From the IMG/VR virus record IMGVR_UViG_3300029989_000005: a stretch of DNA of 64,000 nt. One strand, 5' to 3'. Position numbers and translations under genes: made by a program. The notes below the pieces were generated by a model. That model saw nothing but the letters and a program-made list of their open reading frames with translations, was not told the DNA's origin and made no database searches. This document shows positions 35,236 to 57,868 of this stretch, piece by piece; position 1 is the first letter of the stretch; every line of letters begins with the position of its first letter. Source of the stretch: a virus.

Positions 35236-35239
35236 CACA

Positions 35240-36328
35240 ATGGGACTATTAGAAATTTTGGAAAAAACTTTAAATGCTATATTAAAAATAGTTATATTTT
35301 TAAATTATAATCTGTGGAAATATAAAGTTGAGGAAGACTGTATAATTAGTTCCTCTATTCCTAAAGATAATTTATTGGTAAACGGTATAAAGGGTGGTCA
35401 ATATTTATCGGCTGTCCATATTAAGACAAATGCCGAAATACTTAAAATAACTACTAAAAATGGATGCTTTGTAAAGTGTTCTGTAAATCATTTGTTTTAT
35501 GATTCAAATATGCAGATAATTGATGCTAATAACGTAACAAGGCAGACATTTTTAATCACAAAACAAGGAATATCACGTGTTGTAAAAGTAGAAAAATTAC
35601 CTAGACAATTTACTTTTGATGTTACAGTTGGTTCAGGAGAAATGAGTTATTTTTCTAATGATATACTGAGCCATAATTCTATTACATCAGGTATTTTTAT
35701 AATGTGGTATTTACTTACCAATTATGATAAAGGTGTCGCATGTACTTCGGCAACCGATGATAAAGTTAAAGAACTTATAGAAAAGATAGATACAATATAC
35801 GACAATTTGCCATTTTATATGAAACTTGGTATATGTGTTGATAATCAAAAGAGGAAAATATATGATAATGGCTGCTCAATAAAAGGTGAAACAGCAACAG
35901 AGAAAGCGGGTGCAGGTCTTACTGTTAACGGTATACTTTACTGTGATGAATTTGCACTGATTGACCCACAGGTATTAAAAATATTCTATCAAACTATTTT
36001 TCCAACAATGTCATCGTCAAAAACAGCAAAGATGATAATTACATCTACAGCAAGAGGCAGAAATTTATTTTGGCAATTGTACACTGATGGATTACTTGGT
36101 AAAAATTATTTCAATCCTATACGTGTAGATTGGTTTGATGTTGAGGGTAGAGATGATAAATGGAAACAAGAGGAAACAGCCAACATAGGTTCTGAGGAAG
36201 CATTTGAGCAAGAGTATGGAAATAGTTTTGATACCAATCAACAATTACTTTTGCCATCTGATGTTATGAAGTCATTAAAATCATATCAATCACACTTTAC
36301 AAATAATCGGCTTTCCAATGCATCTTGA
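35240..36328 (+). CDS. terL: Terminase large subunit ATPase fragment fused behind a split-intein C-half
   Basis: 146-aa IntC (CSVNH, FDVTV, YFSNDILSHN ending 35677), then +1 Ser SITSGIF (post-Walker A), Walker B LYCDEFA, motif ITSTARG, FEQEYG. Confidence 0.88.
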   Translation: MGLLEILEKTLNAILKIVIFLNYNLWKYKVEEDCIISSSIPKDNLLVNGIKGGQYLSAVHIKTNAEILKITTKNGCFVKCSVNHLFYDSNMQIIDANNVTRQTFLITKQGISRVVKVEKLPRQFTFDVTVGSGEMSYFSNDILSHNSITSGIFIMWYLLTNYDKGVACTSATDDKVKELIEKIDTIYDNLPFYMKLGICVDNQKRKIYDNGCSIKGETATEKAGAGLTVNGILYCDEFALIDPQVLKIFYQTIFPTMSSSKTAKMIITSTARGRNLFWQLYTDGLLGKNYFNPIRVDWFDVEGRDDKWKQEETANIGSEEAFEQEYGNSFDTNQQLLLPSDVMKSLKSYQSHFTNNRLSNAS

Positions 36329-36374
36329 CAACACAATTTATGTAATTATATAAGAACTTAAAACAAGTATTGGA

Positions 36375-36656
36375 ATGAAAAATGAAACTATTGCCCTATT
36401 GAAATCCATCAAGAAGACATCTGAAAGATATCAAGGTATAAACTTGTCATTAGAGAATGTTGAGATGATAAGAAATGATGTATCAAAATCGTTAAGTAGA
36501 GTAGATGTACACCAAAGAGATTTTTTAAATTATATGTGTAATTCATTTAAAAACCTTATTGAAATGGGTGATGAAATATTTTTACCCGATGCACTAGAGG
36601 CAAATTACACAGAATCACAGATTACACAATATTTAATTGATTTAATCGAAATTTAA
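36375..36656 (+). CDS. Hypothetical protein
   Basis: 93 aa ORF. Confidence 0.6.
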   Translation: MKNETIALLKSIKKTSERYQGINLSLENVEMIRNDVSKSLSRVDVHQRDFLNYMCNSFKNLIEMGDEIFLPDALEANYTESQITQYLIDLIEI

Positions 36657-36660
36657 AATT

Positions 36661-37179
36661 ATGGGGCTAATAATGCTTATATCGGTATTTTTGTTTTGTT
36701 TTGTTTTGTTTTATTGGAAGACCGTTAAATTATATAGCTATACAATTAACTGTTTCTATAATATTTGTGGAATAAAATATATTCAAGAAAAGTATACTAT
36801 AACTATCAAAGGAAATACCATTAATAACCTAAGAGTATCAACGTTTGGTACTATGTATTTAGTTGTAGTTATACCCGAAGAAGTTGAATCTGAATACTTT
36901 GATGAATACTTACAAACATATTTAACAATACTAGAACAGGCAATGGTTGTTCAGAATCTTTATGGCTTGGTGAAGACAAGAAAGGAAAAATATTTAGTTA
37001 CTTCTGATCAAGAAATTAAAAATGCCATTTTTTATATTAAATTTGTTCCAATACTATACAAAAATACATTTTCAAGATTCATATGTTATGTTTTGGTAAG
37101 CTTTTTATCTGTGTTTTTAATAAACCATTTTGAATTAATCAAAGTTGTTTTAGACATTATAAGGCTGATTAAAATATAA
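36661..37179 (+). CDS. Hypothetical membrane protein
   Basis: N- and C-terminal hydrophobic segments. Confidence 0.55.
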   Translation: MGLIMLISVFLFCFVLFYWKTVKLYSYTINCFYNICGIKYIQEKYTITIKGNTINNLRVSTFGTMYLVVVIPEEVESEYFDEYLQTYLTILEQAMVVQNLYGLVKTRKEKYLVTSDQEIKNAIFYIKFVPILYKNTFSRFICYVLVSFLSVFLINHFELIKVVLDIIRLIKI

Positions 37180-37185
37180 ATTGAT

Positions 37186-38664
37186 ATGATAAATTCAAAA
37201 CAAATATTTAATGACATGTCTATCTCCTATTTCAATGAAAATGGTGAAATAGACTTGGTTAATATTCCAATTTCAGATAGTGAAAAATTTGTTTGGGAGG
37301 AAGCAGGATTAGATGATAGATACAAACATCCTACTATAACATCTCAATTTGATAGACCCGTAAAAAAGATACGTAAAAATTATCTAACAAAATACAGGCA
37401 ATACGAATATATAAATAATTTACCACAGCATTTACAGGACAAAATATTTTCAGATAACAAGCCAAAGAAATGGTTTTGGGATATAGAAACAGAAACTGTT
37501 AATGGTGTGTATACCGAGGCATCCAATCCTATTGGTAGAATATTACTCCATACTATTTGTGATGAATATGGAAATGGTACTATATTTGGGATGAAGGAAT
37601 TGACGGGTGAGCAATTAAAAAGAATTGAAATAAAATTAAACGCTCATTTATCTAAAATATTGGATAAAAAAATAGTTAAACAAGTAAATCTAAAATACCG
37701 TCAATACAAAGATGAATACTCCATGAATTGCGATTTTGCCGTAAACTATATGAGCAAAATGTCTGTAATATTCGGTTGGAATGTTTTAAAATTTGATGCA
37801 CAATATTATTTTAATAGGTGTAAAAGAACAGGTATTGATTATGCAAAAATTATATCACCTGTAGGAAAAACATTTTCTCATTCGCTTTCTGATAAATACA
37901 ACAAAGAAAATAAAATAATATTAGATTTACCATTGCATAGACCAATTATTGATTATATGCAAATATTTGAATTCTTTGACCAATCTGTTGCGTATAAAAC
38001 ATCTATGTCATTAGGGTTTATTTCGAATGAGGTATTGGGTGTTACCAAAATTGAATACAATGGAAACTTACAAGATTTATACGACACAGATTTTGAGAAA
38101 TTTTGCTTTTATGGTATAACTGATGCTTTTCTTGTAGAAATGATTGACAAGAAAACCGATATATTTTCCTTGATGCAAACTATAACCAACATTGGAAAGG
38201 TTGATTTACTTTTGGGAACATCGGTTTCAATTATAATAGAATCAATCTTTAGTGATTATTATTACAAAACTTACAATAAGGTATTTATAAAAGAAGAAAA
38301 CATAAAAGAAGGCTATGCGGGTGCTTTTGTTGTTGAGCCAACAATAGGCTTATATGAATACATTGGCATTTATGACTTCGAAAGTCTTTATCCATCCATA
38401 ATGCAATTCCTAAATGTTGGTCTTGATACTTATATAGGTCAAACATATGACGATAAAACAACCGTTGTTACAAAAACAGGTGAGCAAATACCATATGATA
38501 AAAACACTATGATACGTGCTAACAATGGTGTAGTATATACAAGTGAAAAAGATGGATGTGTTAGAACTGTCATAGACAACTTGTTTACAAAGCGTGTTAA
38601 GGCAAAATATGCTAATCATGATATTGCTCATGATATAGAAGAACTTAAAAAATTAATAGCTTAA
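37186..38664 (+). CDS. Family B DNA polymerase, N-terminal part (exonuclease plus motif A); split gp43-like
   Basis: ExoI WDIET, ExoII GWNVLKFD, ExoIII YGITD, YAGAFV-EP, motif A YDFESLYPSI; stops before motif B (KxxxNSxYG). Confidence 0.9.
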   Translation: MINSKQIFNDMSISYFNENGEIDLVNIPISDSEKFVWEEAGLDDRYKHPTITSQFDRPVKKIRKNYLTKYRQYEYINNLPQHLQDKIFSDNKPKKWFWDIETETVNGVYTEASNPIGRILLHTICDEYGNGTIFGMKELTGEQLKRIEIKLNAHLSKILDKKIVKQVNLKYRQYKDEYSMNCDFAVNYMSKMSVIFGWNVLKFDAQYYFNRCKRTGIDYAKIISPVGKTFSHSLSDKYNKENKIILDLPLHRPIIDYMQIFEFFDQSVAYKTSMSLGFISNEVLGVTKIEYNGNLQDLYDTDFEKFCFYGITDAFLVEMIDKKTDIFSLMQTITNIGKVDLLLGTSVSIIIESIFSDYYYKTYNKVFIKEENIKEGYAGAFVVEPTIGLYEYIGIYDFESLYPSIMQFLNVGLDTYIGQTYDDKTTVVTKTGEQIPYDKNTMIRANNGVVYTSEKDGCVRTVIDNLFTKRVKAKYANHDIAHDIEELKKLIA

Positions 38665-38675
38665 AAATAAATATT

Positions 38676-38960
38676 ATGGAAGGTGAAAAATTAATAGTAG
38701 ATGTAATTAAAAGTAGAATACTTGTTAAAATTGAAGAACAAATTGAACAAACCGAAAGCGGATTGATAGCTATAAAAATTGATGATACAGACCAAACTCT
38801 TGGTGAAATTGTCGGTGTAGGTGAAAGTGTAGGTGAAAATACTGTTGTTGGTAAAAGAGTAATGTTTAATAGATTTTCAGGTACTCAGTTAACTATCGAA
38901 AGCAAAAAATATAGGGTTATGGAAGAGGGTGATATTTTATTAATCATAACCAAAAAATAG
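38676..38960 (+). CDS. groES: Co-chaperonin GroES
   Basis: RILVK...QTESGLI...GEIVGVG...FSGT...MEEGDIL. Confidence 0.92.
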   Translation: MEGEKLIVDVIKSRILVKIEEQIEQTESGLIAIKIDDTDQTLGEIVGVGESVGENTVVGKRVMFNRFSGTQLTIESKKYRVMEEGDILLIITKK

Positions 38961-39045
38961 CCCTCTGCTGCAGACGATATACTTTCCTTTAATTTAAATC
39001 ATTTTCATAATACTAACATAACAAAAATATATAAAATTTAAAAAA

Positions 39046-40644
39046 ATGAATGACAAAGTACAAATAAAAACAGGTGCTGAGGCAAGAGATACGATACTTT
39101 ATGGTGCAAAACAATTATGTGATATTGTATCATCTACACTAGGTCCTGGAGGCAAAAACGTATTACTCAAGCATTTAAATGAAAGAATCATACAATCCAC
39201 AAAAGATGGTGTCACTGTTGCTAAATTTATAGAACTTGAAAATGAATGGGAAAACATAGGGTGTAACCTGCTCAAGCAATCATCAATGAGAACGGCATTA
39301 AATGCGGGTGATGGCACTACATCTACGGTTGTGTTTGCTTATGCACTTATGAAAGAGATAAATGAATTTTTGAAATCAAATCCTGATTTTAATGTTCATA
39401 AACTCCGTGATGATTTAAACAAATCAAAGGATTTGATGATTGAATATATTAAGGATCATTCAATAATTTCAAAAACAAATAAGGATATTAGAAACATTGC
39501 CATGATTTCTACAAATGGAGATGTTAGAATATCCGATTTGATTGCATCGGCATATGATAAATTCGGAAATGAACATGGAACTATAATGGTTGAACCATCA
39601 CCATCAACTGAAACATCAATAACTATACAAAGCGGGATTAAAATAGCTTCGGGATATTCTAGTTATATGTTCATGACAGATGTTAATAAGATGATTTCTG
39701 AGCTAACAGATTGTGGTATAATTATAACAGACCACAACATTTCAAAAGGCTCTGATATGTTAAAAATTCTTAGTATAGCCAATACCAATTATAAATCATT
39801 ACTTATAATTGGTGAGAATATTGAGGGTGAAGCTGTTCAGACTATGATTGCCAATCATATGAGCCAAAAGATGAAAATATGTTTGATAAAACCAACATTT
39901 TACGGTGAAAGAAGAAAAGATTATTTGTCAATGATTGCATCCGCTACATTAGCAACACCTTTTTATATTGAGTCTGGTACTAAGCTAGCTGAATTCAGTT
40001 CTAAGTTTATTGGCTCTGCTCAAAAAATTGTAGTGAGTAAAGATGAAACAAATATTCAAATATATGACATTAATAAGCCTAATCTTGATACAAAAATTTG
40101 TCAAATAGAGGAAAATATAAAGTCTATGATTGAAACAGGTTCACCCGAAGAGAATGAGGCTATTCAATGGAAACGTAATTTGCTATCTTTTGCAAAGGGA
40201 AATATAGCTACGATTAAAATCGGTGGTAATTCCGATACAGAAATTTATGAGGTAAAGGATAGAATTGATGATGCAATAGCTGCCGTTAAATCATCTATTG
40301 AGGAAGGTGTATCGGTTGGTGCGGGTGCATCATACATAAAGGCTGCTTATCAATTACCACCTTATTCAATTTCAGGCAATTTGATTAAGTCGGCATCGGA
40401 ATCAATAAAAAGAAAATTGTTAAGCAACTTGTGTATTTCCGATATTGATAAGCTGATTATAGATGACATATTAGATGACAATAATGGTATTAATATGTAT
40501 GGTGAATTAGCAAACCTTGTCGAGGATGGTATTATCGACCCAACAAAAGTAATAAGGAATTGTATAGAAAATGCTATTTCCGTAGCTACAATGTTTTTAC
40601 TTACCGACAATATAGCGATGAAAGTCGAGGACATCTTAATATAA
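39046..40644 (+). CDS. groEL: Chaperonin GroEL
   Basis: STLGPGGKNV, TKDGVTVAK, AGDGTTS, KDRIDDA--A, GIIDPTKV. Confidence 0.95.
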   Translation: MNDKVQIKTGAEARDTILYGAKQLCDIVSSTLGPGGKNVLLKHLNERIIQSTKDGVTVAKFIELENEWENIGCNLLKQSSMRTALNAGDGTTSTVVFAYALMKEINEFLKSNPDFNVHKLRDDLNKSKDLMIEYIKDHSIISKTNKDIRNIAMISTNGDVRISDLIASAYDKFGNEHGTIMVEPSPSTETSITIQSGIKIASGYSSYMFMTDVNKMISELTDCGIIITDHNISKGSDMLKILSIANTNYKSLLIIGENIEGEAVQTMIANHMSQKMKICLIKPTFYGERRKDYLSMIASATLATPFYIESGTKLAEFSSKFIGSAQKIVVSKDETNIQIYDINKPNLDTKICQIEENIKSMIETGSPEENEAIQWKRNLLSFAKGNIATIKIGGNSDTEIYEVKDRIDDAIAAVKSSIEEGVSVGAGASYIKAAYQLPPYSISGNLIKSASESIKRKLLSNLCISDIDKLIIDDILDDNNGINMYGELANLVEDGIIDPTKVIRNCIENAISVATMFLLTDNIAMKVEDILI

Positions 40645-40795
40645 CCAAAATTTTCGGCACTATAGTTCAATACTCATTAGAACGGCTAGCTAGGGAAGTG
40701 TGATTGATACCCGAACCTAGCAGAATTCAATAAGTCACGATATATAGAATTTTTATCATGGTATGAAATCCATGTAGTGTTGAAAATCTTTGGTT
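40643..40795 (+). ncRNA. tRNA-shaped structured RNA in the leader of the gp32-like gene
   Basis: Acceptor-like GGCACTA/TAGTGTT with G-U pairs, D-like GTTC/GAAC, T-like CATGG/CCATG, two inner hairpins and an extended outer stem. Confidence 0.6.
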
Positions 40796-40856
40796 TGTAA
40801 CGGTATAAAATATTTTGAATTTTTGAAAACTATTGTATAATTAAAAAACTATTGAA

Positions 40857-42155
40857 ATGAGTGAAAAAATTGAACAAACTGAAAATTTTGAATTTGGCGG
40901 AATTTTTGCGGTAACAGCAGAAAATTTTGAACAACCAACATCAAGCAATTTTAATGAGGATTTTTTGGCATTAAAACTTGACGATGAAAAGGTAAAAGAT
41001 GGTCGCTATGTAGTAACAGGCAGATTAGTTCCCGATGTTAATTGTGGAGAAATCAGGCGTGACCGTGTTACCAAACATATGTATTATCTTCCTGACCCAA
41101 ATGACCCTAAAGCCCGAATTTATGTAGATGCACCAAGTAATAATCCTAAACTCAAGGATTTAGCTACTGCAGCATATATGAAGCATGTGTACGATAAAGG
41201 TAAGAATTACGACCAAAACACCCCAATACAATTATCAAAACGGTTGGAAGTGCTTAAACGCAATACTTACAATTATTCCCTGTTTTTGATTTATGATGAC
41301 CCACAACACCCTGAATTGAATGGTAAAATCAAAATTTTGAGATATGGCAAAATCCTTAACGTTAAACTTGATCAATTATTAAAGGGTGACCCAATTCTCA
41401 AAAGAAAGCCGATTGTGCCGTTTGACCTTATTAATGGTAAAGATTTAACTATTGTGGTATCAGAGGGAAATCAAAATATGCCAACATATGAACAAAGTTC
41501 TTTCAATGATGGTCTTTGTGGTATTTCATTTGATTGTGGTAAAACTACAATCAAAGAATTTAACCAAGAAACAGGAAAACAAGTTTTTGATTTTTTAAAG
41601 ACAAATTCCCCTGACCTGTCACAAACGTACTACAAAGAAACAACAGCAGAAGATGCTAAATTGTTAATCAATTGCATTAAAATAGCATTTGGTGAACAGT
41701 ATTATAAAGAATTCTGTGAATTGTATTTTGAAGTTTTTGGAACTCAGTACGTACCCGAATACAATAATGTTACAACAGTTGCCGAAGGTCAACAGGCTGT
41801 AGGATTACAACAGGGAACTACACAGGTACAACCAAAAGTTGCCGAACAACCAAAAGTTGTGGAAACAACAACTCAACCAAAAGTTGTGGAAACAACAACT
41901 CAACCAAAAGTTGTGGAAACAACAACTGATAAAGCATCTGTTGACACTACATCGAAATTCAAGTCATTGAAAGACAATGCAGGTACTGTTTCCGCAAGTG
42001 AAAAACCTGTAGAAACCGTTATAGAAGCAAATCCTGTAGAAACTATTGCCGCAAATGAAAAACCTGTAGAAACTGCTGTAAAATCAGTTACACAAACTGA
42101 TCAAAAAGGCTTTGGTGATTTAAACTTTGACAATTTGCCTGATGATATTAACTAA
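40857..42155 (+). CDS. Single-stranded DNA-binding protein (T4 gp32-like)
   Basis: LIYDDPQHPELNGKIKILRYGK, PFDLINGKDL, PTYEQSSF; acidic C-terminal tail. Confidence 0.85.
   Translation: MSEKIEQTENFEFGGIFAVTAENFEQPTSSNFNEDFLALKLDDEKVKDGRYVVTGRLVPDVNCGEIRRDRVTKHMYYLPDPNDPKARIYVDAPSNNPKLKDLATAAYMKHVYDKGKNYDQNTPIQLSKRLEVLKRNTYNYSLFLIYDDPQHPELNGKIKILRYGKILNVKLDQLLKGDPILKRKPIVPFDLINGKDLTIVVSEGNQNMPTYEQSSFNDGLCGISFDCGKTTIKEFNQETGKQVFDFLKTNSPDLSQTYYKETTAEDAKLLINCIKIAFGEQYYKEFCELYFEVFGTQYVPEYNNVTTVAEGQQAVGLQQGTTQVQPKVAEQPKVVETTTQPKVVETTTQPKVVETTTDKASVDTTSKFKSLKDNAGTVSASEKPVETVIEANPVETIAANEKPVETAVKSVTQTDQKGFGDLNFDNLPDDIN
41847..41927 (+). repeat. 27-bp tandem repeat x3 (QPKVVETTT)
   Basis: caaccaaaagttgtggaaacaacaact, three perfect copies in the SSB linker. 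Confidence 0.9.
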
Positions 42156-42182
42156 TAACTAATACCAAAAGCAAATAAATTA

Positions 42183-42217
42183 AAAATAGTCCGAGAAATT
42201 GTTTCTCGGACTATTTT
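42183..42217. terminator. Bidirectional terminator between convergent genes
   Basis: aaaatagtccgagaaa / tttctcggactatttt. Confidence 0.75.
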
Positions 42218-42221
42218 GTTT

Positions 42222-43853
42222 TTATGAGTGGAATCTCTCTATATTTATGTTTACACACCCCATATAATCATTCAATGGGTCAAATTCATCCTTAAAATAT
42301 ACATTATTGCTGTCAGTCCAATCACCTCTTATAACTGCTATTTGATTATTATCGACTTTTATATTTCCTAAAGAATCTATGTATTTGCTATCTTGAGATA
42401 ATAATATAACCTTAACGGAATAAATATTATCTAATCCGTTAATAAGTGACACTATTTCAGAATGTATTATGTCTGATGTTGATTCTCTATTCAACAAATA
42501 ATTACTTATAATATTTAAAATATTTTGTCTTGTAATCATCATATTTGATATATCGGCATCCACACCATCCTCCAATTCACAGTAAATCATCATTGCGAAC
42601 TTCTGTATAAGAGGATTTATAAGTTCCATAGTTATATTGGCTGATTCAATACCTGACTCCTGTATCTGTGATAAAATTTGAGCTTTTTCATAATCCAATA
42701 ATAAAAATTTATCTAAAGATATAGTAAAATAATTTTCACCTGTTATTAACCTGTTAATCAAAGATGGTACTAAGTACACAGAATATTCGTTTATATTATC
42801 AATAGTTTTCTTAAATATGTTGATTGACGAAAAATAATTCATCTTTTTAAAGAAATAATTAATTGACTTTTTGTCATGTAATATAAAACTTCTTGAAATG
42901 TTTGGTGCTAAAATTTTTGTTAAATTTATATCCTCTGAATCAGCACCAAGGCAAGGTAATATATTGTTGTTTACATAAAAAATATCATCAAGACTTAATT
43001 CATTACCATTACCATCAAAGCATGTATCATTAAGTTTCCAAGTTGTTTTTGAATTGAATAAATTACCTATACTTCCATTGGTTGTAAGTACATTTACTTT
43101 TATTTCAGAGCCTAAAGGTGGAATCTCTTGGAAATTGTTTTTCCCAAATATTATATCAACACCTGATGTCATACCCGTTTTAACTAAACACCCTGCAGCA
43201 CCATATGGTATATCATACAGCGAAATATACTGCTCATATATTTTACCGTTAACCATTACCTCAACATATGAATCATCATACATTTGAAATTGTAAGTTTG
43301 GTAATTCATATGTTTGTATATTTGTACCTGTTCCTGTGAATGTATGAGTTTCTACAACACCTTCTACAATAGGTATTTGTAATTCCTTTGTATCATTTAT
43401 ATTGAATGTTTTGAAATCAGTATTCATTAATATTGTATACTGTAAACCATTTTCCAAATTCTGTATTTTGGTGTAATTAGGTATGTGTATTTTGTCACCC
43501 GCTATACTTATATTTATTGATGGGTTTCTAATAAGTATAATACTTCCCCTTGCCGATGAACCTCTAAAAGCGTTGTGACCTTGTAATCTTGCAAGACCAT
43601 GTACAGAATGTATTCTGTTAGCTGTTTTAAAATTAGATTGAGTTGCTGAGTCGTTAATATAATAGAAAATATTATTAACGTGATTTTGTAATACAAGTAT
43701 TATTTGACCAAAACTTGAGGCATATGTGAAAGACCTAAGGTTGTTTTTGAATCTAATAATTAAATTATTAGTAAGTTCATTTATAGAATCTATAGCTTTT
43801 ACCTTGTTTTTAGGTATTAATTTATTTTCTAAATTATCATTATTAACAGCCAT
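42222..43853 (-). CDS. Baseplate wedge protein (T4 gp6-like)
   Basis: SVHGLARLQGHNA-RG, IVEG, DIIFG------PPLGSEI-V----TNG-IGN, GADSE. Confidence 0.8.
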   Translation of the reverse strand: MAVNNDNLENKLIPKNKVKAIDSINELTNNLIIRFKNNLRSFTYASSFGQIILVLQNHVNNIFYYINDSATQSNFKTANRIHSVHGLARLQGHNAFRGSSARGSIILIRNPSINISIAGDKIHIPNYTKIQNLENGLQYTILMNTDFKTFNINDTKELQIPIVEGVVETHTFTGTGTNIQTYELPNLQFQMYDDSYVEVMVNGKIYEQYISLYDIPYGAAGCLVKTGMTSGVDIIFGKNNFQEIPPLGSEIKVNVLTTNGSIGNLFNSKTTWKLNDTCFDGNGNELSLDDIFYVNNNILPCLGADSEDINLTKILAPNISRSFILHDKKSINYFFKKMNYFSSINIFKKTIDNINEYSVYLVPSLINRLITGENYFTISLDKFLLLDYEKAQILSQIQESGIESANITMELINPLIQKFAMMIYCELEDGVDADISNMMITRQNILNIISNYLLNRESTSDIIHSEIVSLINGLDNIYSVKVILLSQDSKYIDSLGNIKVDNNQIAVIRGDWTDSNNVYFKDEFDPLNDYMGCVNINIERFHS

Positions 43854-43989
43854 GTTGTTATTTTAATTTATTTATACTTAAATGGGACTATCAAAATTAA
43901 TTGGTAATCCCATTTGAACTTATTTATATAATATTTTTATAATCCTTAATATTTTTAATTTTTTATTTTTAATAATTTTAACTTTGATT

Positions 43990-44274
43990 TTAATTCCATC
44001 CAAATGATTTAGCCAAATCCAAAGCATCTTTTTCATCAACCAATCCCGCAGCCATTAATTTATGATAATAATTATTTACACGTGATAAATGATCTGTTGC
44101 AATTTCCTTTGCTATTGATGGGTTATTAGTATGTTCAACCTCAACCAAACATCCAACTTGTAATTCCTCTTGGTCAAATGTTGAATCATCAGTATTATCA
44201 CCTTCCCCACCTCTTAATGTATCAACCATATTAAGTTTTTGATCTTGTGATTCAAACACCTTTAATCTTTTCAT
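43990..44274 (-). CDS. DUF5661-like small protein
   Basis: ELQVG--VEVEHT----IAKEIATDHL----NYY-KL. Confidence 0.7.
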   Translation of the reverse strand: MKRLKVFESQDQKLNMVDTLRGGEGDNTDDSTFDQEELQVGCLVEVEHTNNPSIAKEIATDHLSRVNNYYHKLMAAGLVDEKDALDLAKSFGWN

Positions 44275-44313
44275 ATTTAGTATGCTTTTGATTATTTAAT
44301 ATTGTTACAAAAA

Positions 44314-46104: not shown

Positions 46105-46185
46105 ATTTAATACTATTTTTAGTTATTTATAAAACATTTGATTATTTTATAAAGCTGATAATATAAAATCAGATAATATAAAATA

Positions 46186-46452: not shown

Positions 46453-46454
46453 AT

Positions 46455-47468
46455 ATGTACGCTGAATTCCATACTCATTTAGGTGGTTCTACATTACCAC
46501 AAACATTGTTTTCTATAGCTTATGATAGAGGATTAAAAATCAAAAAGTATCAGGATTATGACAAATTTTCTGATACAATTTTTAATGGTGCAAATGAGGA
46601 TAAATCTTTGACAGGATATTTAGGTAGATATAAAATGATTCAAGAAATTTGTTCTTATCCGCAATCAATAGAACTTTCTGTTTATCATGTTCTTGAGGAC
46701 TTATATATTAACCATGGATATAGACTTATTGAATTAAAGCTAAACCCTGCCTTGAGAAATCAAAAAGGTCTATATGATTTGGATACAATAATAATGTCTG
46801 CTTGTAATGGATTGCAGAAAGCAAAGGCTATATTCAAAGACTTGCGATGTGGTTTGATAATTGAATCAGATCAATCATTTTCCATAGAACTCACAAAAAT
46901 TATATTTGAAAAAGCGGTTAAATTCAAAAATTTTGGTATTGTAGGAGTAGATATTTCGGGGTATCATTTAGATTATTCATCCAACCTTTTAAACGGATTT
47001 TATAAGGAAGCATTCAAATTTATAAAGGAAAATGGTCTTAAAATAACCTTACATTTTGGTGAAATTATTAAAGATGTGCCTGACGAGAGCGATAGAAATT
47101 CGTTAACTAATTTCAAAAACATAATTAAAAGTATTGACAGAATAGGTCATGGTGTACAATTTTTGTTGTATTCAAAATTTGCTGTTGATATTATAGCCTC
47201 TAATGGCATACCAATTGAATTTTGTCCTAACTCAAATTTGAAAACAAGTGCAATTGATAAAGAGGATATTGAAAAAATAATCGATAAAGCTGTCTGCAAC
47301 AACATTCAATTGCTTTTATGTTCTGATGGTCATATATTTAATGGAAACTTTGAAAACAATTTGAAAACAATACAAAATAATATAAAAGATAAATGGTTGT
47401 TCCAAAATTTCAAAGGTTCTGTTACTGATTTTGAAGCGGTTTCCAAATATTCATTTATAAATCAGTAA
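46455..47468 (+). CDS. Adenosine/AMP deaminase-family amidohydrolase
   Basis: EFHTHLGGS, VGVDISG, TLHFGE, RIGHG, EFCPNSN, CSDG. Confidence 0.88.
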   Translation: MYAEFHTHLGGSTLPQTLFSIAYDRGLKIKKYQDYDKFSDTIFNGANEDKSLTGYLGRYKMIQEICSYPQSIELSVYHVLEDLYINHGYRLIELKLNPALRNQKGLYDLDTIIMSACNGLQKAKAIFKDLRCGLIIESDQSFSIELTKIIFEKAVKFKNFGIVGVDISGYHLDYSSNLLNGFYKEAFKFIKENGLKITLHFGEIIKDVPDESDRNSLTNFKNIIKSIDRIGHGVQFLLYSKFAVDIIASNGIPIEFCPNSNLKTSAIDKEDIEKIIDKAVCNNIQLLLCSDGHIFNGNFENNLKTIQNNIKDKWLFQNFKGSVTDFEAVSKYSFINQ

Positions 47469-47472
47469 AGTC

Positions 47473-48485: not shown

Positions 48486-48531
48486 TAATTTTTATTTTAT
48501 TTAAAAACATAACTTTAAATAAAATAAATCA

Positions 48532-50160: not shown

Positions 50161-50161
50161 T

Positions 50162-50413
50162 ATGAACTCAGATTATTCTATATATAAGTCATTAAAACAT
50201 AGAAAAGATAATGTTAAAAATCTTGGGTATGATTATAGAGGTAATATAATGAAAAATTCTATTTCCAATATTATAAAAAATAGTAATAATCAAACTCTCC
50301 AAGATATATTAAAGCTTATAGACAGCTGCTTGGATTTTATGATTGTTGGTGTTAAGACTATTAAATCTAGAGTAAACATATGTGTTGATAAAGATACAGA
50401 CCTTATAAATTAA
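50162..50413 (+). CDS. Hypothetical protein
   Basis: 83 aa, tightly packed in an operon. Confidence 0.6.
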   Translation: MNSDYSIYKSLKHRKDNVKNLGYDYRGNIMKNSISNIIKNSNNQTLQDILKLIDSCLDFMIVGVKTIKSRVNICVDKDTDLIN

Positions 50414-50414
50414 T

Positions 50415-52037
50415 ATGGATAACGAATTATTAAAATCTATATTACCCGAAGACCTTTATCAAGAATTAGTTAACCTTGATAAAAACGTTGTGGAACTAGA
50501 TACCTGCAGGATTCCAAAAAATGGTGAACCTATTGATATATTACAAGGGTGTGTTCCTGTAATACCCAAATTCAACAATGTAAAAGATGTAAAAGGCATA
50601 AATGACATAATAAGTTCTATACTATCTGATTCACCGTTACTTAAAGATGTAAATTTAGACGAACAAAGGAAGAATTGTCTAGATATTATACAAACTGTAG
50701 CTTTAAACCTTTCAAAGGCAAGTTTAGATAGGTTGAATAAAAATCAATTAATACCTTTACAAAAAATATTGTTAAATTTAATAGAAATAACAATATACAA
50801 CACTATACTTGAAAAAAACAACAAATCACATCAATGTTTTAATTTATCTTTGAACTCTGATAATTATTACAGCCTTATTCCACGTATTAAAAATTATCAT
50901 TTACAATCAGGAATTAGGTCTTATGGCATACATGATATATTTGATGATATGATAAGGTCTGTAATTATTAAAAAGGAATATAAAACCACACAAAATACAA
51001 ATATATCTCATGTAATAAAATATTTTGTAGATTTAAACAAGTTGTCTGATAGTGATATAGGTGATGGAACTGTGGATATAAAAACTATAATATACACAAG
51101 GTTACTAACATTTAAAAATATTTTATTAGGTGTACTTGGTGAATTATACAAAACTGTCAATACTCCTTTACTACCACAACCACTAATTTATAATTTATCA
51201 TCGGGTATTATAAATACTTATTTTAATGGAAATATTTCTGAAATAACTAATAAAAAACTAATTTCGGGGATAAGTATAACGTTAAAGACAGATGATGAAA
51301 TAATTGAGTACTATAAATCTCTTAACACATCACTACAAAAAAACTTATCCGAATACTTTTCTATAATTGATATGTTTGATTTAGATCAAATCAAATATGA
51401 ACTAATATATGAATTATCAATTATTCCTTGTACAAGTTCAAATAAAGGATTTTATGAATCGGTAACAAATAACAAAGCTCAATATAAAGAAAATCTCAAG
51501 GATATTCCTATTAATTCAGATGAATACAATATATTCCTACCGACTTATTGGATGGTATGGACTACATATTTAAACTTAATATCATTGTTACCAAATCATT
51601 GGACTGTAGGATTTATAACACCCGTTGGTGCACCCGTTAAATTACCTATAATTTACATTCATTTGCTTACTATACCAATCGGAAGTACAAACATAGTAGT
51701 TTGGCTAACAATAAATGGTTTGGCTATAGCACCTGTTGTAATGGTAGTAGATGGTAAAACAAAATCAACTTGGGAAGTACTGTTTAGGGGTGGAAAGCAA
51801 CTAATAGAGGAGAGCCAAGGTTCTAAAACTGTACCAACAGGATTTAATTTACCTCAATATATAGGTGATTCACAAGCCGTTATTGACATTAATACTAACA
51901 TAACTGAAAGTGCACCAATGTTGGAAGATGCATTTCCACCAATGTATAGAATGTCACCGTTAAATCTTGTATTCTTAAAATTTCTTAATTCATGCTGTGA
52001 TAAAGGAAAAATATTCATGGGACTGATACCAATATAA
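50415..52037 (+). CDS. Hypothetical protein
   Basis: 540 aa ORF with a Pro/hydrophobic C-terminal region. Confidence 0.65.
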   Translation: MDNELLKSILPEDLYQELVNLDKNVVELDTCRIPKNGEPIDILQGCVPVIPKFNNVKDVKGINDIISSILSDSPLLKDVNLDEQRKNCLDIIQTVALNLSKASLDRLNKNQLIPLQKILLNLIEITIYNTILEKNNKSHQCFNLSLNSDNYYSLIPRIKNYHLQSGIRSYGIHDIFDDMIRSVIIKKEYKTTQNTNISHVIKYFVDLNKLSDSDIGDGTVDIKTIIYTRLLTFKNILLGVLGELYKTVNTPLLPQPLIYNLSSGIINTYFNGNISEITNKKLISGISITLKTDDEIIEYYKSLNTSLQKNLSEYFSIIDMFDLDQIKYELIYELSIIPCTSSNKGFYESVTNNKAQYKENLKDIPINSDEYNIFLPTYWMVWTTYLNLISLLPNHWTVGFITPVGAPVKLPIIYIHLLTIPIGSTNIVVWLTINGLAIAPVVMVVDGKTKSTWEVLFRGGKQLIEESQGSKTVPTGFNLPQYIGDSQAVIDINTNITESAPMLEDAFPPMYRMSPLNLVFLKFLNSCCDKGKIFMGLIPI

Positions 52038-52067
52038 ATAAATTAAAATAAATTAAAAATTAGAAAA

Positions 52068-52721
52068 ATGAAAAATCTAGCAAACAATTTTGTACTGTCA
52101 CGTGCAAAAATTAGCAATTCATCGATACAAGTTGGTGATTTGTACATTACACCTAATTTTGACGAAAACATATCTGATGAAATATTATCAGAGGTAGAAA
52201 GTATTGTCAGAAAAAACTTTACTAATGTAAGGCAATTAAACGGTAAATCTGTAAAGAATTTACGTCATTTATTTGAAGACAATGTTAAAACAACTCAATT
52301 TTTTATGGGTGCTCTGACATTATTGACGATAGATAAATGTAAATTTTATGTTGTTAACAACAAAACAGGTATACTAATGCCAACAATATCGGTTTTGGAA
52401 GTTCAATTTCCAACTGCTGAGGAGGAAAAAGTGGAAGCACCTGTTGTGGAAGCACCTGTTGTGGAAGAAGTGGAAGCACCTGTTGTGGAAGCACCTGTTG
52501 TGGAAGCACCTGTTGTGGAAGCACCTGTTGTGGAAGCACCTGTTGTGGAAGCACCTGTTGTGGAAGCACCTGTTGTGGAAGCACCTGTTGTGGAAGCAGT
52601 TAAGACAGAGGAAACCAAAGCACCTGTTGTAAAGCCCACAAAACCCACAAAAGTAGTTACTAAAAACGTTGCCGATGCTCAGAAGCAAAATGCAGCCAAA
52701 ATAGAAGAAAGCTTAAAGTAA
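52068..52721 (+). CDS. Hypothetical protein with VEAPV repeat linker
   Basis: Globular N-terminus plus low-complexity tail. Confidence 0.7.
   Translation: MKNLANNFVLSRAKISNSSIQVGDLYITPNFDENISDEILSEVESIVRKNFTNVRQLNGKSVKNLRHLFEDNVKTTQFFMGALTLLTIDKCKFYVVNNKTGILMPTISVLEVQFPTAEEEKVEAPVVEAPVVEEVEAPVVEAPVVEAPVVEAPVVEAPVVEAPVVEAPVVEAPVVEAVKTEETKAPVVKPTKPTKVVTKNVADAQKQNAAKIEESLK
52431..52598 (+). repeat. 15-bp tandem repeat, 10 perfect copies
   Basis: gtggaagcacctgtt x2, gtggaagaa, x8, then a partial copy. Confidence 0.95.
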
Positions 52722-52735
52722 AAACACAAATTTTG

Positions 52736-52778
52736 AACATAGATAAAGCCAAGGGTAACCCTTGGCTTTATCTATGTT
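52736..52778. terminator. 20-bp perfect hairpin
   Basis: aacatagataaagccaaggg-taa-cccttggctttatctatgtt. Confidence 0.65.
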
Positions 52779-52822
52779 TGACAATAAAAACTCATAATAA
52801 ATATAAAAATTAAAAGTTATAC

Positions 52823-53437
52823 ATGAAATATACTATCAAAACCACAGCAGAATTACTTGATATCACAAACCAATATAGTAAAAATAAGAATTTAGCTGTT
52901 GAGATTAAAGGGAGCAATTTGGTTATATATAAAACTAAAGTCATAAGGTTGTTTGGTATAGAACTTATAATTACCAAGACTTCATTAGCATCTGTTGAAA
53001 TATTACCATCTGTAAAAGATTATGATTATATAGAAACATATGTAAATTATGTTGGTCAGGAGATAATGAATAATAAATCAGGTAATAAAATTATTCTTGA
53101 TTTACTTAATATGTGTATGGGAAATTCCATTGAATCAAACGAGGTTTTAGGTCTTTTGCAGAAAAACGTATATTTCGGTGCACCATATGAGAAATGGAGA
53201 ATGATTGATGAACTTTCAGATAATTTATTTTACTATGTTGGTATAATGAGATTAGTAGGTACTAATTTCGAAGAGGTTATGGAAGCCAATATGGTTAAAC
53301 TGAAATCAAGATACCCTGACGGTAGGAAAAATTTGAATGTATTTGTGAATAAAAATAAGGAAAAAGAAAAAGAATTAATAAAAGAATTAATACAAAAAAA
53401 CGAAAAAAATGGAAAATCTGAAAACCCTGAAATTTAA
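52823..53437 (+). CDS. MazG-like (d)NTP pyrophosphohydrolase with N-terminal extension
   Basis: IESNEV...QK...DELSD-LFY...FEEVMEANMVKLKSRYP. Confidence 0.8.
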   Translation: MKYTIKTTAELLDITNQYSKNKNLAVEIKGSNLVIYKTKVIRLFGIELIITKTSLASVEILPSVKDYDYIETYVNYVGQEIMNNKSGNKIILDLLNMCMGNSIESNEVLGLLQKNVYFGAPYEKWRMIDELSDNLFYYVGIMRLVGTNFEEVMEANMVKLKSRYPDGRKNLNVFVNKNKEKEKELIKELIQKNEKNGKSENPEI

Positions 53438-54254
53438 TAAATTAAACGTTAAGAAATTTATTGAATATTTATCTAGTACTAATATTAAGGAAAAAGAAAT
53501 TATAGATTTTGAGAGTGACAGGTTGGTATGTAAATCACATGCAAAAATAAAAACCTATATTAAATTCGTTGAAATTGGTATTAATGATATATTCGAGGGG
53601 TTGGAGCAATACAAGCATATATATTTTCCAATAAACGACGTTAATAAATTAACAAAAGTATTTGAATTATACAACGCAAACGAATATAATTTTGTTGGTG
53701 GAGATATACAATACAGTGAGGATATAGATGGAAATTTCATAGCCCATATACTGAATATTAAATCTGGTAAATTAAAAAATAAATTGACCCTTGGTGAATT
53801 TAGTAATATTCAGTATATGAATACGAAGATATGGGACACAGTTATCTCAGAGGTATCAAATTCTTCTATGGTGTTTAATTTGTCAAGCTTGGACATAACC
53901 AATATTTTAAAACTGTTGGCGATAGATAAGGACACAGATCTTCTAAATAAAACGGGTGATTTCAACAAATTTACATTAAAATGTGTTGATGGTAATTTCG
54001 TAATTGCATCATATGAAAATAAATGGGAATATGCTGTTGGTGAGGTAGATGTAATGAGAGAGGAAAAAGAAATTCACTGCTTTGATATAATGATTAAACT
54101 ATTGGATAAATCTAATTCTCATAAAATAAGTATTTATAAATCCTCAAGAGGCATTTATATGTCATACATAGAGGAAATAAATTTGGAAAAAGAGGAAATT
54201 GAACGTGGAACAAAACCCAAAAAATACCTAGTAAGCTGTGATGTTGCAAAATAA
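53409..54254 (+). CDS. Probable sliding clamp (T4 gp45-like)
   Basis: 281 aa with a two-domain alpha/beta clamp-like pattern (DVNKLTKVF, FNLSSLDITNILKL). Confidence 0.45.
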   Translation: MENLKTLKFNKLNVKKFIEYLSSTNIKEKEIIDFESDRLVCKSHAKIKTYIKFVEIGINDIFEGLEQYKHIYFPINDVNKLTKVFELYNANEYNFVGGDIQYSEDIDGNFIAHILNIKSGKLKNKLTLGEFSNIQYMNTKIWDTVISEVSNSSMVFNLSSLDITNILKLLAIDKDTDLLNKTGDFNKFTLKCVDGNFVIASYENKWEYAVGEVDVMREEKEIHCFDIMIKLLDKSNSHKISIYKSSRGIYMSYIEEINLEKEEIERGTKPKKYLVSCDVAK

Positions 54255-54918
54255 CGATGAAATAGTTGAACAACCGAACGATGAATTAGATTCAGAGTTT
54301 GATGAATTAGATTCAGAGTTTGATGAATCATTTTTAGATATTGACGAAAACGTAGAATTTTCTGAGCAAACATCTGAATCTGATTATATTATTTCTACAC
54401 AAGCACCTATGTCATTTGCCATAGATGCTTGCGTAGAGGTTAATGAAGAATTATCAGACCCTGAGAATTATTATGGTAGTAAGTTTATTTATGAAAGAGT
54501 TGTAGGGTATTTAAAAGATATATCTAGCAAACATGAAAAATATGCTTATATACGAGATTTGTCAATAGAATTCATAGAAAGCGGTTCTTCTGTGTTATAT
54601 TTAAATGAATTATACGAGGTTCAATATGTTTTTAACGATAATACAGTATTGATTCACAACCATGGCAAGGATTCAATAAAGCTTATCGATAGAAATGACT
54701 TGCTTCCAAACGATAATTCATGCAAAAATATTACAAACAAAGACGTTAAATTTTTGTTTGATGAATTGATATCAAGATTTTCTGTTGACAAGGATACAAT
54801 ATATGATGTTTTTGTATCCTTTTCAAATTACATGAAAATAGATGTAAAGAAAATATTCAAGTCTTTGGATGATAAAACTCAAAATAAAATAGTTTTAGCA
54901 TTGAATAAGAGGACATAA
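54238..54918 (+). CDS. Acidic hypothetical protein; C-terminus weakly gp33-like
   Basis: DELDSEF x2 (21-bp repeat); helical end VFVSFSNYMKIDVKKIFKSLDDKTQNKI. Confidence 0.35.
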   Translation: MMLQNNDEIVEQPNDELDSEFDELDSEFDESFLDIDENVEFSEQTSESDYIISTQAPMSFAIDACVEVNEELSDPENYYGSKFIYERVVGYLKDISSKHEKYAYIRDLSIEFIESGSSVLYLNELYEVQYVFNDNTVLIHNHGKDSIKLIDRNDLLPNDNSCKNITNKDVKFLFDELISRFSVDKDTIYDVFVSFSNYMKIDVKKIFKSLDDKTQNKIVLALNKRT

Positions 54919-54940
54919 TTTTAGTAAAAGATTTTAAAAA

Positions 54941-55378
54941 ATGGGAAATCAAATCAAATTAATCGGTACAATAAAATTAAAATGCATAATAAACACATGT
55001 GAGGTTTCTGAATTTGATTACAATCCTCCTTTTTCGGATGAATTAAAAACATTGGGTGGTGTATTTAAGCCCATAGAATTTAAATTCGTTTTTAATAATT
55101 GCACACATGAAAAATTTGATAAGATTGAAGAGGTGTGTAATTATTATTATTCTCCACAAAAACATTATACATCGGGTCAAAGGAACTTGATTAAAAAAGT
55201 CGAGGTAGCTTTTGATGGCTGTGCAAATGATTTCATATTTAAAAAGGATGACGATGGTATGTCGTTTATAGATTTGAATGAGGTATGTGGTACACCAAAT
55301 TATATTTCTACTGTTCTTAAGAAGAATAAAATAAAAGTGATTAAAACGACATCAAGAAGGATTTATATTAGTAATTAA
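54941..55378 (+). CDS. Hypothetical protein
   Basis: 145 aa ORF. Confidence 0.6.
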   Translation: MGNQIKLIGTIKLKCIINTCEVSEFDYNPPFSDELKTLGGVFKPIEFKFVFNNCTHEKFDKIEEVCNYYYSPQKHYTSGQRNLIKKVEVAFDGCANDFIFKKDDDGMSFIDLNEVCGTPNYISTVLKKNKIKVIKTTSRRIYISN

Positions 55379-56901
55379 TCCAAAGTAAAGGACATTTTAC
55401 TAAATATTGACTCATTGTTTCCGTTAGTTGACTTTCCAATTACATAACATAAATTACCACTACCAATAGCATAAATTTGACTTGATGTGGATTCTTCTAT
55501 TACAAACAGCAATTGACCTTTTGACTTGTTGACTGATGAATTAACAGTTTCTTTAATTTCTATTCTACTTGCCGACTTGTTTGGGAATACAAGATAATAC
55601 ACAAGGCTGTTTGAAATTTCAATCAGTGCGTTTGATTCATCAATAAACGATAAAAGCAAGTTATTTTTAAGTGGTGCTATCTCTAATATTCCACCGTTAG
55701 TTTTCAATGACAATCTTTCAACATATTGATTAACTACAACTGTTTTTATTACCTCGTCAATTTGCTGTTGTATATTCCTCTGTGATTTTGAGATGTGATT
55801 GTAAACATCAAATTTAGTTAATGGTATATCAAGTTTTACAAGCCTATTGCTAAATCTGAATATTTCCTGAGTTGAAACAGATGATTCTATTGTAACACCC
55901 ATACCATCAACATTATTAATTAGCTGTACTGAATAATCTATTGATATTGATGATAGACTTGAATTTTGTATAACAGGCTTGAACTTATACAATCTTTGAT
56001 AATTTGAATTTTGTATTGTAGTATATTCATCAGTGATTATATATTCATCACCTATCTGCTCAATTACTTTAATAGTATGAATTAAATAAAAATTATTTCC
56101 TGGAATGGAATTTAGCTTAAAAATGAAATCCTCAATTTGATCATTATTATATTGTAACTGAAATTCGAAATAATCACCATCGATAGCTAATTGTACAAAT
56201 CCTGCCAAAGATGTATACTTGTTTTGAGTTATAAATTGGTTTGTGATTGTGTCAACCAACAAAAACTGATAAAAACCGTTGTTATAAACACCATTCTGAA
56301 TGAGTGAATATTCAAAATATAAAGAATTTTCGACTATTAATTTATCGTTGAAAATTGATAATATATCCTCGTTTTCAACATTCTGTAATTCTAACCAATA
56401 TTCAAGCGAAGGAATTTGTAGCTCTATATATTTATCAAATACAGCCTCTGATAATTTTATAGGCTTTGAATTATATTGTATTAGCTCAGCAAACTTTCTT
56501 AAATACACAAAATTGGCAAAGTACACCTTTTGACCCGATTTTGTATAAGTGAATACTTTCAGATTAAATCCATCATGACCAATAAAATTGAATCCTGATG
56601 CTATATTTATCCTTACAGTATTGTACTTCATAACAAAGGTATCAGATATACTAGGAATTATTTTGTGTATATCTGAATCAACTGTTAATAAATCATATAC
56701 ACCATCCTCGTTGAGTAAGGTTAGATTGTTAGAATTTTCTTCTGCAGTATACCTATCTTGATTTGGCTTTAATACTGTCTTTGAATTATCATGTAAATTT
56801 TCAACAACGAATAAGCCATTATTTACAGCATTTTCATTTGTTTCTGCATAATTGTATTCTAACAATACCTCGTCTTGTAATCTTATAACAGCTTTTGACA
56901 T
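55375..56901 (-). CDS. Probable virion structural protein
   Basis: Beta-rich 508 aa; VLLEY, YNTVRINIASGFNF, FDKYIELQIPSL; late-type upstream motif. Confidence 0.45.
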   Translation of the reverse strand: MSKAVIRLQDEVLLEYNYAETNENAVNNGLFVVENLHDNSKTVLKPNQDRYTAEENSNNLTLLNEDGVYDLLTVDSDIHKIIPSISDTFVMKYNTVRINIASGFNFIGHDGFNLKVFTYTKSGQKVYFANFVYLRKFAELIQYNSKPIKLSEAVFDKYIELQIPSLEYWLELQNVENEDILSIFNDKLIVENSLYFEYSLIQNGVYNNGFYQFLLVDTITNQFITQNKYTSLAGFVQLAIDGDYFEFQLQYNNDQIEDFIFKLNSIPGNNFYLIHTIKVIEQIGDEYIITDEYTTIQNSNYQRLYKFKPVIQNSSLSSISIDYSVQLINNVDGMGVTIESSVSTQEIFRFSNRLVKLDIPLTKFDVYNHISKSQRNIQQQIDEVIKTVVVNQYVERLSLKTNGGILEIAPLKNNLLLSFIDESNALIEISNSLVYYLVFPNKSASRIEIKETVNSSVNKSKGQLLFVIEESTSSQIYAIGSGNLCYVIGKSTNGNNESIFSKMSFTLD

Positions 56902-56994
56902 ATAGAATTTATTTTGTTTATTTAAATAACTTAAAATATAATATATAGTTGATTAATTAAAGGCAAATATATTATAAAAAACAAAAATTACTCT

Positions 56995-57831
56995 ATGTAT
57001 TCTGAAACACTGCTTGATCTTGATATGTATTTCTTAGTTCATTCATCTATTGACATATCAAGATTTAAAGATGAACGTAGGAGATTTGTACACTCAATAG
57101 ATTTGGCTGAGGGAACGGGTGGTGATTATTCAGTCATAAACATCTTTGAGGTTCTACCTATGACCATTGATGAAATAGGAAAAGTATCAATTATAGAAGA
57201 TGAATATTCTTTTTTTAAAATGGTTCAGGTTGCTATGTTCAGGTCAAATCAAGTAATAGTACCCGAATTAGCTAAATGGTATTATCATTGCTTAGTTGAG
57301 CTTTTTATACCCGATAACGTAAGGACATGTCTTGAAAATAATTATGATGGAAACTATTTTAGGGAAATTGTTATTAAATTATATGGTGAGGAGAATGAAA
57401 TAGATGGCGATTTACTTTTCTTACAATTTGCATACAATATGAAAGATGATCAATCTTATGCTGTGCGTGTTGGAATCAAGCAAAATGACCATACTAAAAA
57501 CTTGGGTACTACAATGATGAAAACCCAAATGAGGCAGACACAATTGGTATTAACAGAATTTATAACAATAGAGGAGGCATTATCATTTGCACGAAAAAAA
57601 TTAAAGAATGGTAATTTTGGTGGATATTGTGCAATGATTGGTAATGATGATTGTATAATGACCTCTGTAAATATCACACACGTAAGAAAATTACCTGAAT
57701 TTCAAGAGCTTGTGGATGATATTTCGCAATATTGCCCACAAGAATTTTGGAATGCTATATCTGATATAATGGGTAAAGTGCCTTTACAATCCGATGATTC
57801 AGGTGATCTAACATCAGTATTCAATAGATAG
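56995..57831 (+). CDS. terL: Terminase large subunit C-terminal RNase H-like nuclease domain as a separate gene
   Basis: SIDLAEGTGGDYSVINIF, QVAMFRSN, LENN, GNDDCIM correspond to gp17 nuclease motifs. Confidence 0.85.
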   Translation: MYSETLLDLDMYFLVHSSIDISRFKDERRRFVHSIDLAEGTGGDYSVINIFEVLPMTIDEIGKVSIIEDEYSFFKMVQVAMFRSNQVIVPELAKWYYHCLVELFIPDNVRTCLENNYDGNYFREIVIKLYGEENEIDGDLLFLQFAYNMKDDQSYAVRVGIKQNDHTKNLGTTMMKTQMRQTQLVLTEFITIEEALSFARKKLKNGNFGGYCAMIGNDDCIMTSVNITHVRKLPEFQELVDDISQYCPQEFWNAISDIMGKVPLQSDDSGDLTSVFNR

Positions 57832-57868
57832 TTTTAATAAATAAATAAAATTATTAAAACTAACGCAT

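Follow-up and report, generated by a model that had tools for sequence, protein, structure and literature searches.

A dispersed phage terminase with a separately encoded nuclease domain and a putative two-intein route to its ATPase

Introduction

In T4-type terminases, the large subunit (TerL) carries its ATPase and nuclease domains on one polypeptide, and the TerL-associated nuclease domain has been described in a review of jumbo phages as universal in Caudovirales (PMC7824862). At the 'Terminase' locus described by Dassa et al. in 2009 (PMC2677866), TerL is interrupted by a split intein whose long C-terminal part lacks only motif N1, and the model put forward there foresaw dispersal of the halves. 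Here we analyze a 64,000-nucleotide stretch of DNA from an uncultured peat phage (IMG/VR record IMGVR_UViG_3300029989_000005; hereafter, the window), which is AT-rich (about 29% GC) and in which a TerL ATPase gene that opens with a split intein's C-terminal part, and a separate TerL nuclease gene, are found far apart.

We take the Dassa 'Terminase' locus to be the one later named GOS-TerL; AceL-TerL, reportedly described by Thiel et al. in 2014, is said to be a two-piece terminase split intein. For natural fission between the ATPase and nuclease of TerL, we found only two cases in the literature: Parabacteroides phage phiPDS1 has two adjacent coding sequences with TerL domains, for which the assembly or the codon table was suspected by the authors to be at fault (PMC10773633), and the terminase of Staphylococcus phage Twort is split into three coding sequences (PMC13729910). 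Neither is a conserved, dispersed fission at the protein level, unlike the arrangement in the window. The split in Twort terL is caused by group I introns. A parallel in another enzyme is the intein-less split family B DNA polymerase gp43A/gp43B of Aeromonas phages, reportedly described by Petrov et al. in 2006; it is likewise an essential multidomain enzyme made as two unjoined polypeptides, although the enzyme differs and the Aeromonas halves are adjacent.

Results

TerL is encoded in dispersed pieces

The TerL pieces were mapped onto the single-chain TerL of Flavobacterium phage MaF61 (PQ858689), and the window was compared with two related IMG/VR contigs, G001 (167 kb) and G002 (150 kb), both of which are complete according to CheckV. 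An earlier sequence-only reading of the window had proposed that TerL is fragmented into at least three dispersed genes, including an ATPase core that begins after the Walker A lysine and ends soon after the motif FEQEYGNSF, and the alignments bear this out. Residues 149-335 of the ATPase gene product align to residues 169-361 of T4 gp17 (E = 2e-12) and to residues 113-323 of MaF61 TerL (E = 1.4e-32); the core matches phrog_2, 'terminase large subunit' (E = 9e-19), and Pfam Terminase_6N scores 19.3 bits, under the cut-off of 22. Walker B (LYCDEF) corresponds to IYIDEC in T4, and the coupling motif ITSTARG (TST) to ITTTPNG. The core extends from the first residue after the Walker A lysine to just beyond the interdomain hinge and has its own stop codon, 32 amino acids beyond FEQEYGNSF. 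Two preceding open reading frames (33302-34096 and 34102-35235) were considered as TerL pieces and rejected after profile and homology searches.

The second gene had been read as continuing TerL 20.7 kb farther on, and it does so. Its product aligns to residues 370-613 of MaF61 TerL (E = 2.4e-37) and to many annotated TerL C termini, including those of jumbo phages; no Pfam or PHROG model matched it. The acidic metal-binding triad (D36, E114, and D219) does not vary among 66 homologues, and D36 aligns to T4 D401. An AlphaFold (AF2) model of the protein (predicted local distance difference test score, pLDDT, 92.4) has T4 gp17 and the RB49 gp17 nuclease domain (3CPE, 3C6H) as its best Foldseek matches (template modeling score, TM, 0.77). 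The gene encodes a complete terminase nuclease domain, its fold confirmed by the model and its catalytic acidic residues intact. It has its own start codon and a 93-nucleotide AT-rich upstream region in common with a divergent gene. No promoter motif common to the upstream regions of the terminase pieces was found.

The piece bearing Walker A had been placed outside the window, and homology and six-frame motif searches found no Walker A-containing N-terminal piece of TerL (N-piece) inside it. A tblastn match to the TerL N terminus at 54418-54696 (E = 1.5) was rejected as an unrelated acidic protein, and a six-frame pattern of Walker A followed by Cys matched only unrelated ATPases. In G001 and G002, the N-piece (roughly 160 amino acids) runs from the TerL N terminus to SRQSGK, followed by a Cys, about 47 residues of block A intein sequence, and a tail that is basic and amphipathic; its neighbor is the C-terminal piece of a DNA polymerase B that is split as well. 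The equivalent polymerase piece begins at base 154 of the window and leaves it at the left edge. Protein P0168 (168 amino acids) consists of 110 amino acids of TerL ending in SRQSGK, the Walker A of a T4-type terminase (SRQLGKT in T4), followed by a 58-amino-acid N-terminal intein part (IntN), denoted IntN1; P0168 and the window nuclease protein (P0002) have the same longest contig, of 172,977 bp, and a stretch of 507 letters, with 38 of 38 words shared, is located 1163 letters before the window start. These contig data put P0168 on the minus strand, about 1.2 kb before the first base of the window, in what we take to be the same genome, with about 36 kb between it and the ATPase gene, which is on the opposite strand. 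An exact 39-mer of the left edge of the window was absent from the viral, metagenome, and genome contigs searched, and megablast of window positions 35000-40000 against GenBank phages gave no match.

The same three extein-bearing genes are present in both relatives. Each has three nonoverlapping matches to MaF61 TerL (residues 5-114, 112-324, and 365-614), with no further match and no fused or intact terL elsewhere in these two complete genomes. The exteins add up to 604 amino acids (110 + 216 + 278), compared with 601-623 in intact relatives. The pieces of G001 are arranged as in the window. G002 has its nuclease gene 37 kb from the ATPase gene and on the opposite strand, whereas its N-piece shares a strand with the ATPase gene and is upstream of it by just 2 kb, such that both piece spacing and strand vary among genomes. 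The gene between the N-piece and the ATPase gene in G002 (L013, 1905-2981) is a clamp-loader-like AAA+ gene and not a homing endonuclease. A large protein collection contains about eight distinct stand-alone nuclease proteins (271-287 amino acids, 47-87% identity) and seven N-pieces. Compared between the window and G001, the ATPase has a ratio of nonsynonymous to synonymous substitution rates (dN/dS) of 0.07, and the nuclease and the C-terminal intein part (IntC) each have one of 0.10, with dS of 1.3-1.6; the terminase pieces are under strong purifying selection. Contigs assembled run by run from other peat samples span 55242-57990 and 52569-57990, across the 5' junction of the nuclease gene, without joints or indels, and the same gene ends recur in separate IMG/VR assemblies, which rules out misassembly. 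The phage is present in 24 sequencing runs of peat samples, with no RNA run listed among them.

Table 1. Coordinates of terminase-related features in the window
Feature	Coordinates	Strand	Description or matches
Polymerase B (polB) C-terminal piece, start; synteny marker for the N-piece	1..154	-	Matches polB C-pieces of G001 and G002
Extein-less adaptor, 219 amino acids	13113..13772	-	IntC1 (162 amino acids) fused directly to IntN2 (57 amino acids)
IntC2, split-intein C-part	35240..35677	+	146 amino acids; gp41-1 and P0017 intein matches
TerL ATPase core, 216 amino acids	35678..36328	+	gp17, MaF61, P0016, and phrog_2 matches
Stand-alone TerL nuclease domain, 278 amino acids, RNase H-like	56995..57831	+	MaF61, P0016, and AF2/Foldseek matches

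Fission at the hinge

According to an exhaustive search that used the nuclease piece as query, a fused TerL is the norm. In the nearest fused relative, P0016 (655 amino acids), the same leader and IntC are followed by the ATPase core and the nuclease, all in one frame; residues 18-359 of the ATPase gene product map to P0016 residues 20-380, and residues 16-275 of the nuclease gene product to residues 396-653. Because the pieces map contiguously, no residues were lost at the hinge break. Proteins L016 and L017 are laid out as P0016. All three share their leader, IntC2, and exteins with the window (42-46% identity) but have an unbroken hinge, and represent the state just before the fission seen in the window. 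Since P0016 has a split intein but a fused hinge, splitting of the intein preceded the hinge break, which is a later, clade-specific fission; the evolutionary order is a contiguous intein, then a split intein, then hinge fission. In this clade, the linker acquired a stop codon and a start codon about 20 residues beyond the T4 hinge (354-364; PMC3074133), and dispersal of the halves followed.

The 20,667 bases now separating the two genes hold ordinary phage genes on both strands, including the N-terminal half of polB and genes for GroEL, a single-stranded DNA-binding (SSB)-like protein, a deaminase, and MazG. The sequence-only reading saw neither an intein nor intron-like flanks at this break, and our searches agree. 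There is no intein motif, HN motif, or conserved nucleophile at the ATPase tail or the nuclease start, no Rfam family (introns, ribozymes) in the whole window or at either break, and no repeat of at least 10 bases common to both break flanks. With no intein, intron, or repeat present, the noncovalent joint proposed in that reading is consistent with the searches, from which it is drawn as the most economical interpretation.

So far, this fission appears in this clade only. A short nuclease-only protein, P0015, was considered as an independent case and rejected as a truncated gene call; 12 of 18 related viral-contig loci were examined, and all 12 encode an intact TerL of 601-619 amino acids. 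For P0027, no relatives were found in viral contigs. We note that nuclease-only TerL proteins of 220-330 amino acids in large collections can be truncated or internal-Met calls from short contigs, and protein length by itself is no proof of fission.

Two inteins and an adaptor at the P-loop

The break at the P-loop has a different character. IntC2 begins with a 28-amino-acid hydrophobic leader, followed by block B (SVNH), blocks F and G, and a terminal SHN; the border with the extein is SHN/S at 35677/35678, with the +1 Ser belonging to the extein. IntC2 aligns to positions 38-128 of the 128-amino-acid gp41-1 intein (E = 1.4e-5), and because this match begins at position 38, the ATPase gene lacks about 37 residues of the intein N terminus, block A among them. 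Identity of IntC2 is 74% in G001 and 51% in G002.

Further intein parts are found in the extein-less adaptor gene (Table 1). Its IntC1 has block B (TQDH) and a terminal VHN, and its IntN2 has the form CVTADT...FELYY with an aromatic amphipathic tail. The adaptor reading frame is open in both G001 (49% identity) and G002 (29% identity), in which the HN/C junction and the block B His are kept. There are also relatives with a contiguous intein at the same GK/C site, of which P0017 is a single-chain example. Residues 1-54 of the P0017 intein align gap-free to adaptor IntN2 (z-score, 15.4) and residues 60-197 align to IntC2 of the ATPase gene (score, 242; z-score, 40.5), whereas IntN1 of the N-piece has no similarity to the P0017 intein (z-score, -0.4). 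As the P0017 intein is composed of IntN2 plus IntC2, the adaptor IntN2 and the ATPase-gene IntC2 are the two halves of one ancestral intein.

The partner of IntC2 by descent is therefore the adaptor IntN2 and not IntN1, such that two splicing reactions are probably needed. IntN1 is assigned to the adaptor IntC1 by elimination, and the first joint is most likely a two-step relay via the adaptor, which brings the number of genes to four. The sequence-only reading had supposed one trans-spliced joint; the intein basis of the first break stands, but a single joint is too simple given the descent of IntC2. Both intein pairs fit an atypical split type with a short IntN containing only block A and a long IntC containing blocks B, F, and G, HN, and the nucleophile. 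Identity is just 14-24% between the two IntC groups and 15-28% between the two IntN groups.

We also observed that the amphipathic tail of IntN and the hydrophobic leader of IntC are halves of a helical linker that is unbroken in the P0017 intein (residues 33-80); the ancestral intein was split within this linker. The linker halves in the window are at 35240-35323 and 13113-13190 and may act as a zipper uniting the split halves.

Discussion

We consider it probable that this phage, with a genome of roughly 173 kb, has a four-gene terminase in which the ATPase is spliced via a relay and the nuclease remains separate. IntN1 would pair with IntC1, and the first splicing reaction would move the N-extein onto the adaptor Cys. 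The product, '...GK/C-IntN2', would match the N-terminal portion of a P0017-type precursor in form, a resemblance that makes the two-step route chemically coherent. IntN2 would pair with IntC2, and the second splicing reaction would yield a 326-amino-acid ATPase with a restored P-loop (SRQSGK-SITSG), although the order of the two steps may be reversed. ATP binding would be impossible until splicing rebuilds the P-loop. The nuclease would never be covalently joined, and would have to work on the ATPase ring in trans to cut concatemers when packaging starts and when it ends. Splicing, the relay, and physical association of the ATPase with the nuclease are what we infer from the gene sequences. 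For the conjunction of a tailed-phage motor with a separate, noncovalently recruited nuclease and a P-loop built by a two-step relay through an extein-less adaptor, the balance tips only slightly in favor.

Several observations weigh against this proposal. The T4 hinge is treated as part of the communication track between ATPase and nuclease (PMC3074133), and the P74-26 nuclease domain alone neither binds nor cuts DNA (PMC5389665); the trans arrangement therefore needs an interaction surface, and no docking module or interaction surface was identified at the break, the ATPase tail and nuclease N terminus being ancestral linker segments. For the relay, a contiguous relative of intein 1 (IntN1 plus IntC1) was not found, the adaptor, with a dN/dS of about 0.38, shows faster evolution than the remaining parts, and cross-reaction of IntN1 with IntC2 may occur, in which case the adaptor would be dispensable or regulatory.

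Such direct pairing of IntN1 with IntC2 would be one-step trans-splicing of the GOS-TerL and AceL-TerL kind, with the adaptor as a regulator, decoy, or selfish remnant. The two IntN types are equal in length and block A layout, and all of the database N-pieces found carry the IntN1 type; moreover, the G002 arrangement, in which only one gene, clamp-loader-like, separates the N-piece from the IntC2-ATPase gene on a common strand, is reminiscent of a 'fractured gene' (PMC2677866). We nonetheless regard this as unlikely, because the contiguous intein whose C-part is IntC2 has an N-part that resembles the adaptor IntN2 and not IntN1, and because the adaptor is open with all splice residues in three genomes with saturated synonymous sites. 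A variant of our proposal, rather than its opposite, is that the nuclease is a free headful or maturation nuclease recruited by the small terminase subunit (TerS), the portal, or DNA, while the ATPase ring translocates alone as in phi29-type motors. Consistent with this, the break lacks a docking module, the location of the nuclease gene varies independently of that of the ATPase gene (opposite strand in G002), and the P74-26 ATPase domain grips DNA by itself (PMC5389665). However, the inactivity of the lone P74-26 nuclease domain and the dependence of T4 nuclease regulation on interdomain contacts (PMC3074133) make it improbable.

That the ATPase and nuclease halves are covalently joined by a hidden route (RNA trans-splicing, programmed DNA rearrangement, or an unrecognized protein ligation) we judge very improbable. 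It has no direct support, although contigs drop rare variants and a minority joined DNA form could be missed; against it are the lack of Rfam introns or ribozymes, common repeats, and contig joints, the positions of the pieces in G002 (on opposite strands, 37 kb apart), the conserved stop codon and tail of the ATPase gene, the separate start of the nuclease gene, and the lack of a nucleophile or HN at the ends. Least probable of all, and already refuted, is an assembly artifact or decaying pseudogene pieces of a terminase replaced by another packaging enzyme. The authors of the phiPDS1 study suspected an assembly or codon-table problem in their case (PMC10773633), but here independent assemblies agree, purifying selection is strong, the active sites are intact, and the two complete relatives have no other TerL.

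Comparison with described systems suggests that the hinge fission is a new version of a known enzyme. Terminase split inteins with a long IntC are already known. As in GOS-TerL, the intein is in the TerL P-loop, with a short IntN bearing block A (N1) and a long IntC (122 amino acids in Dassa et al.; 146 here). Unlike GOS-TerL, where two pieces make up one locus and the IntN on the N-extein is cognate to the IntC on the C-extein, the pieces here are about 36 kb apart on opposite strands, which also sets them apart from the fractured genes of Dassa et al. (2009), and there is an extein-less adaptor; by descent, the IntN on the N-extein and the IntC on the C-extein are not cognate, and two inteins would work in series. 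Domain order, motifs, and fold are those of T4 gp17 (3CPE, 3EZK) and MaF61 TerL, but the chain is cut at the Walker A lysine and about 20 residues beyond the hinge, and the nuclease is its own polypeptide; the single ATPase-nuclease chain of T4-type terminases is replaced by separate, conserved genes. MaF61 has a purA-like gene upstream of terL, and a PurZ-like homologue is likewise near the window pieces.

Models of the packaging motor differ in how the nuclease is used, being hinge-tethered and part of each stroke in T4, and a flexible, cutting-only appendage in P74-26. A lineage that keeps the two domains on unlinked genes, with strong purifying selection, amounts to a natural experiment on these models; if our proposal is true, the lineage would show, as a test run by nature, that DNA translocation and headful cutting can do without the covalent hinge. 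Orthogonal, atypically split inteins in series, with short N-parts, may also serve multifragment protein ligation. TerL serves as the standard marker when phages are detected, placed in phylogenies, and scored for completeness, and because the nuclease here has no Pfam or PHROG match and the ATPase falls below the Pfam cut-off, such genomes can be mis-scored. We speculate that TerL-recognizing immune sensors (Avs-type; PDB 8DGC is among the structure matches) might be affected by fragmentation.

Neighboring genes

Other genes of the window include a family B DNA polymerase that is also split without an intein. Its N-terminal half (37186-38664, plus strand) ends past motif A (DFESLYPS), and its C-terminal half (from 1-154, minus strand), about 37 kb away, begins before motif B (KKILNSIYG) and adjoins the TerL N-piece in all three genomes. 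The PurZ-like adenylosuccinate synthetase homologue (phrog_1211) is encoded at 31819-33222 (plus strand), an adenosine-deaminase-family gene is at 46455-47468 (plus strand), and a MazG-like pyrophosphatase gene is at 52823-53437 (plus strand); these three genes, all near the TerL pieces, could constitute a 2-aminoadenine DNA pathway. A GroEL-type chaperonin (phrog_5725, E = 2e-101; Pfam Cpn60_TCP1) is encoded at 39046-40644 (plus strand). At 52031-52600, within an open reading frame (52068-52721) with a weak extensin-like low-complexity match, the per-run contigs break and depth increases by a factor of about 1.5 to 2 in three of four runs; the segment is a probable repeat, with further copies in the genome or community.

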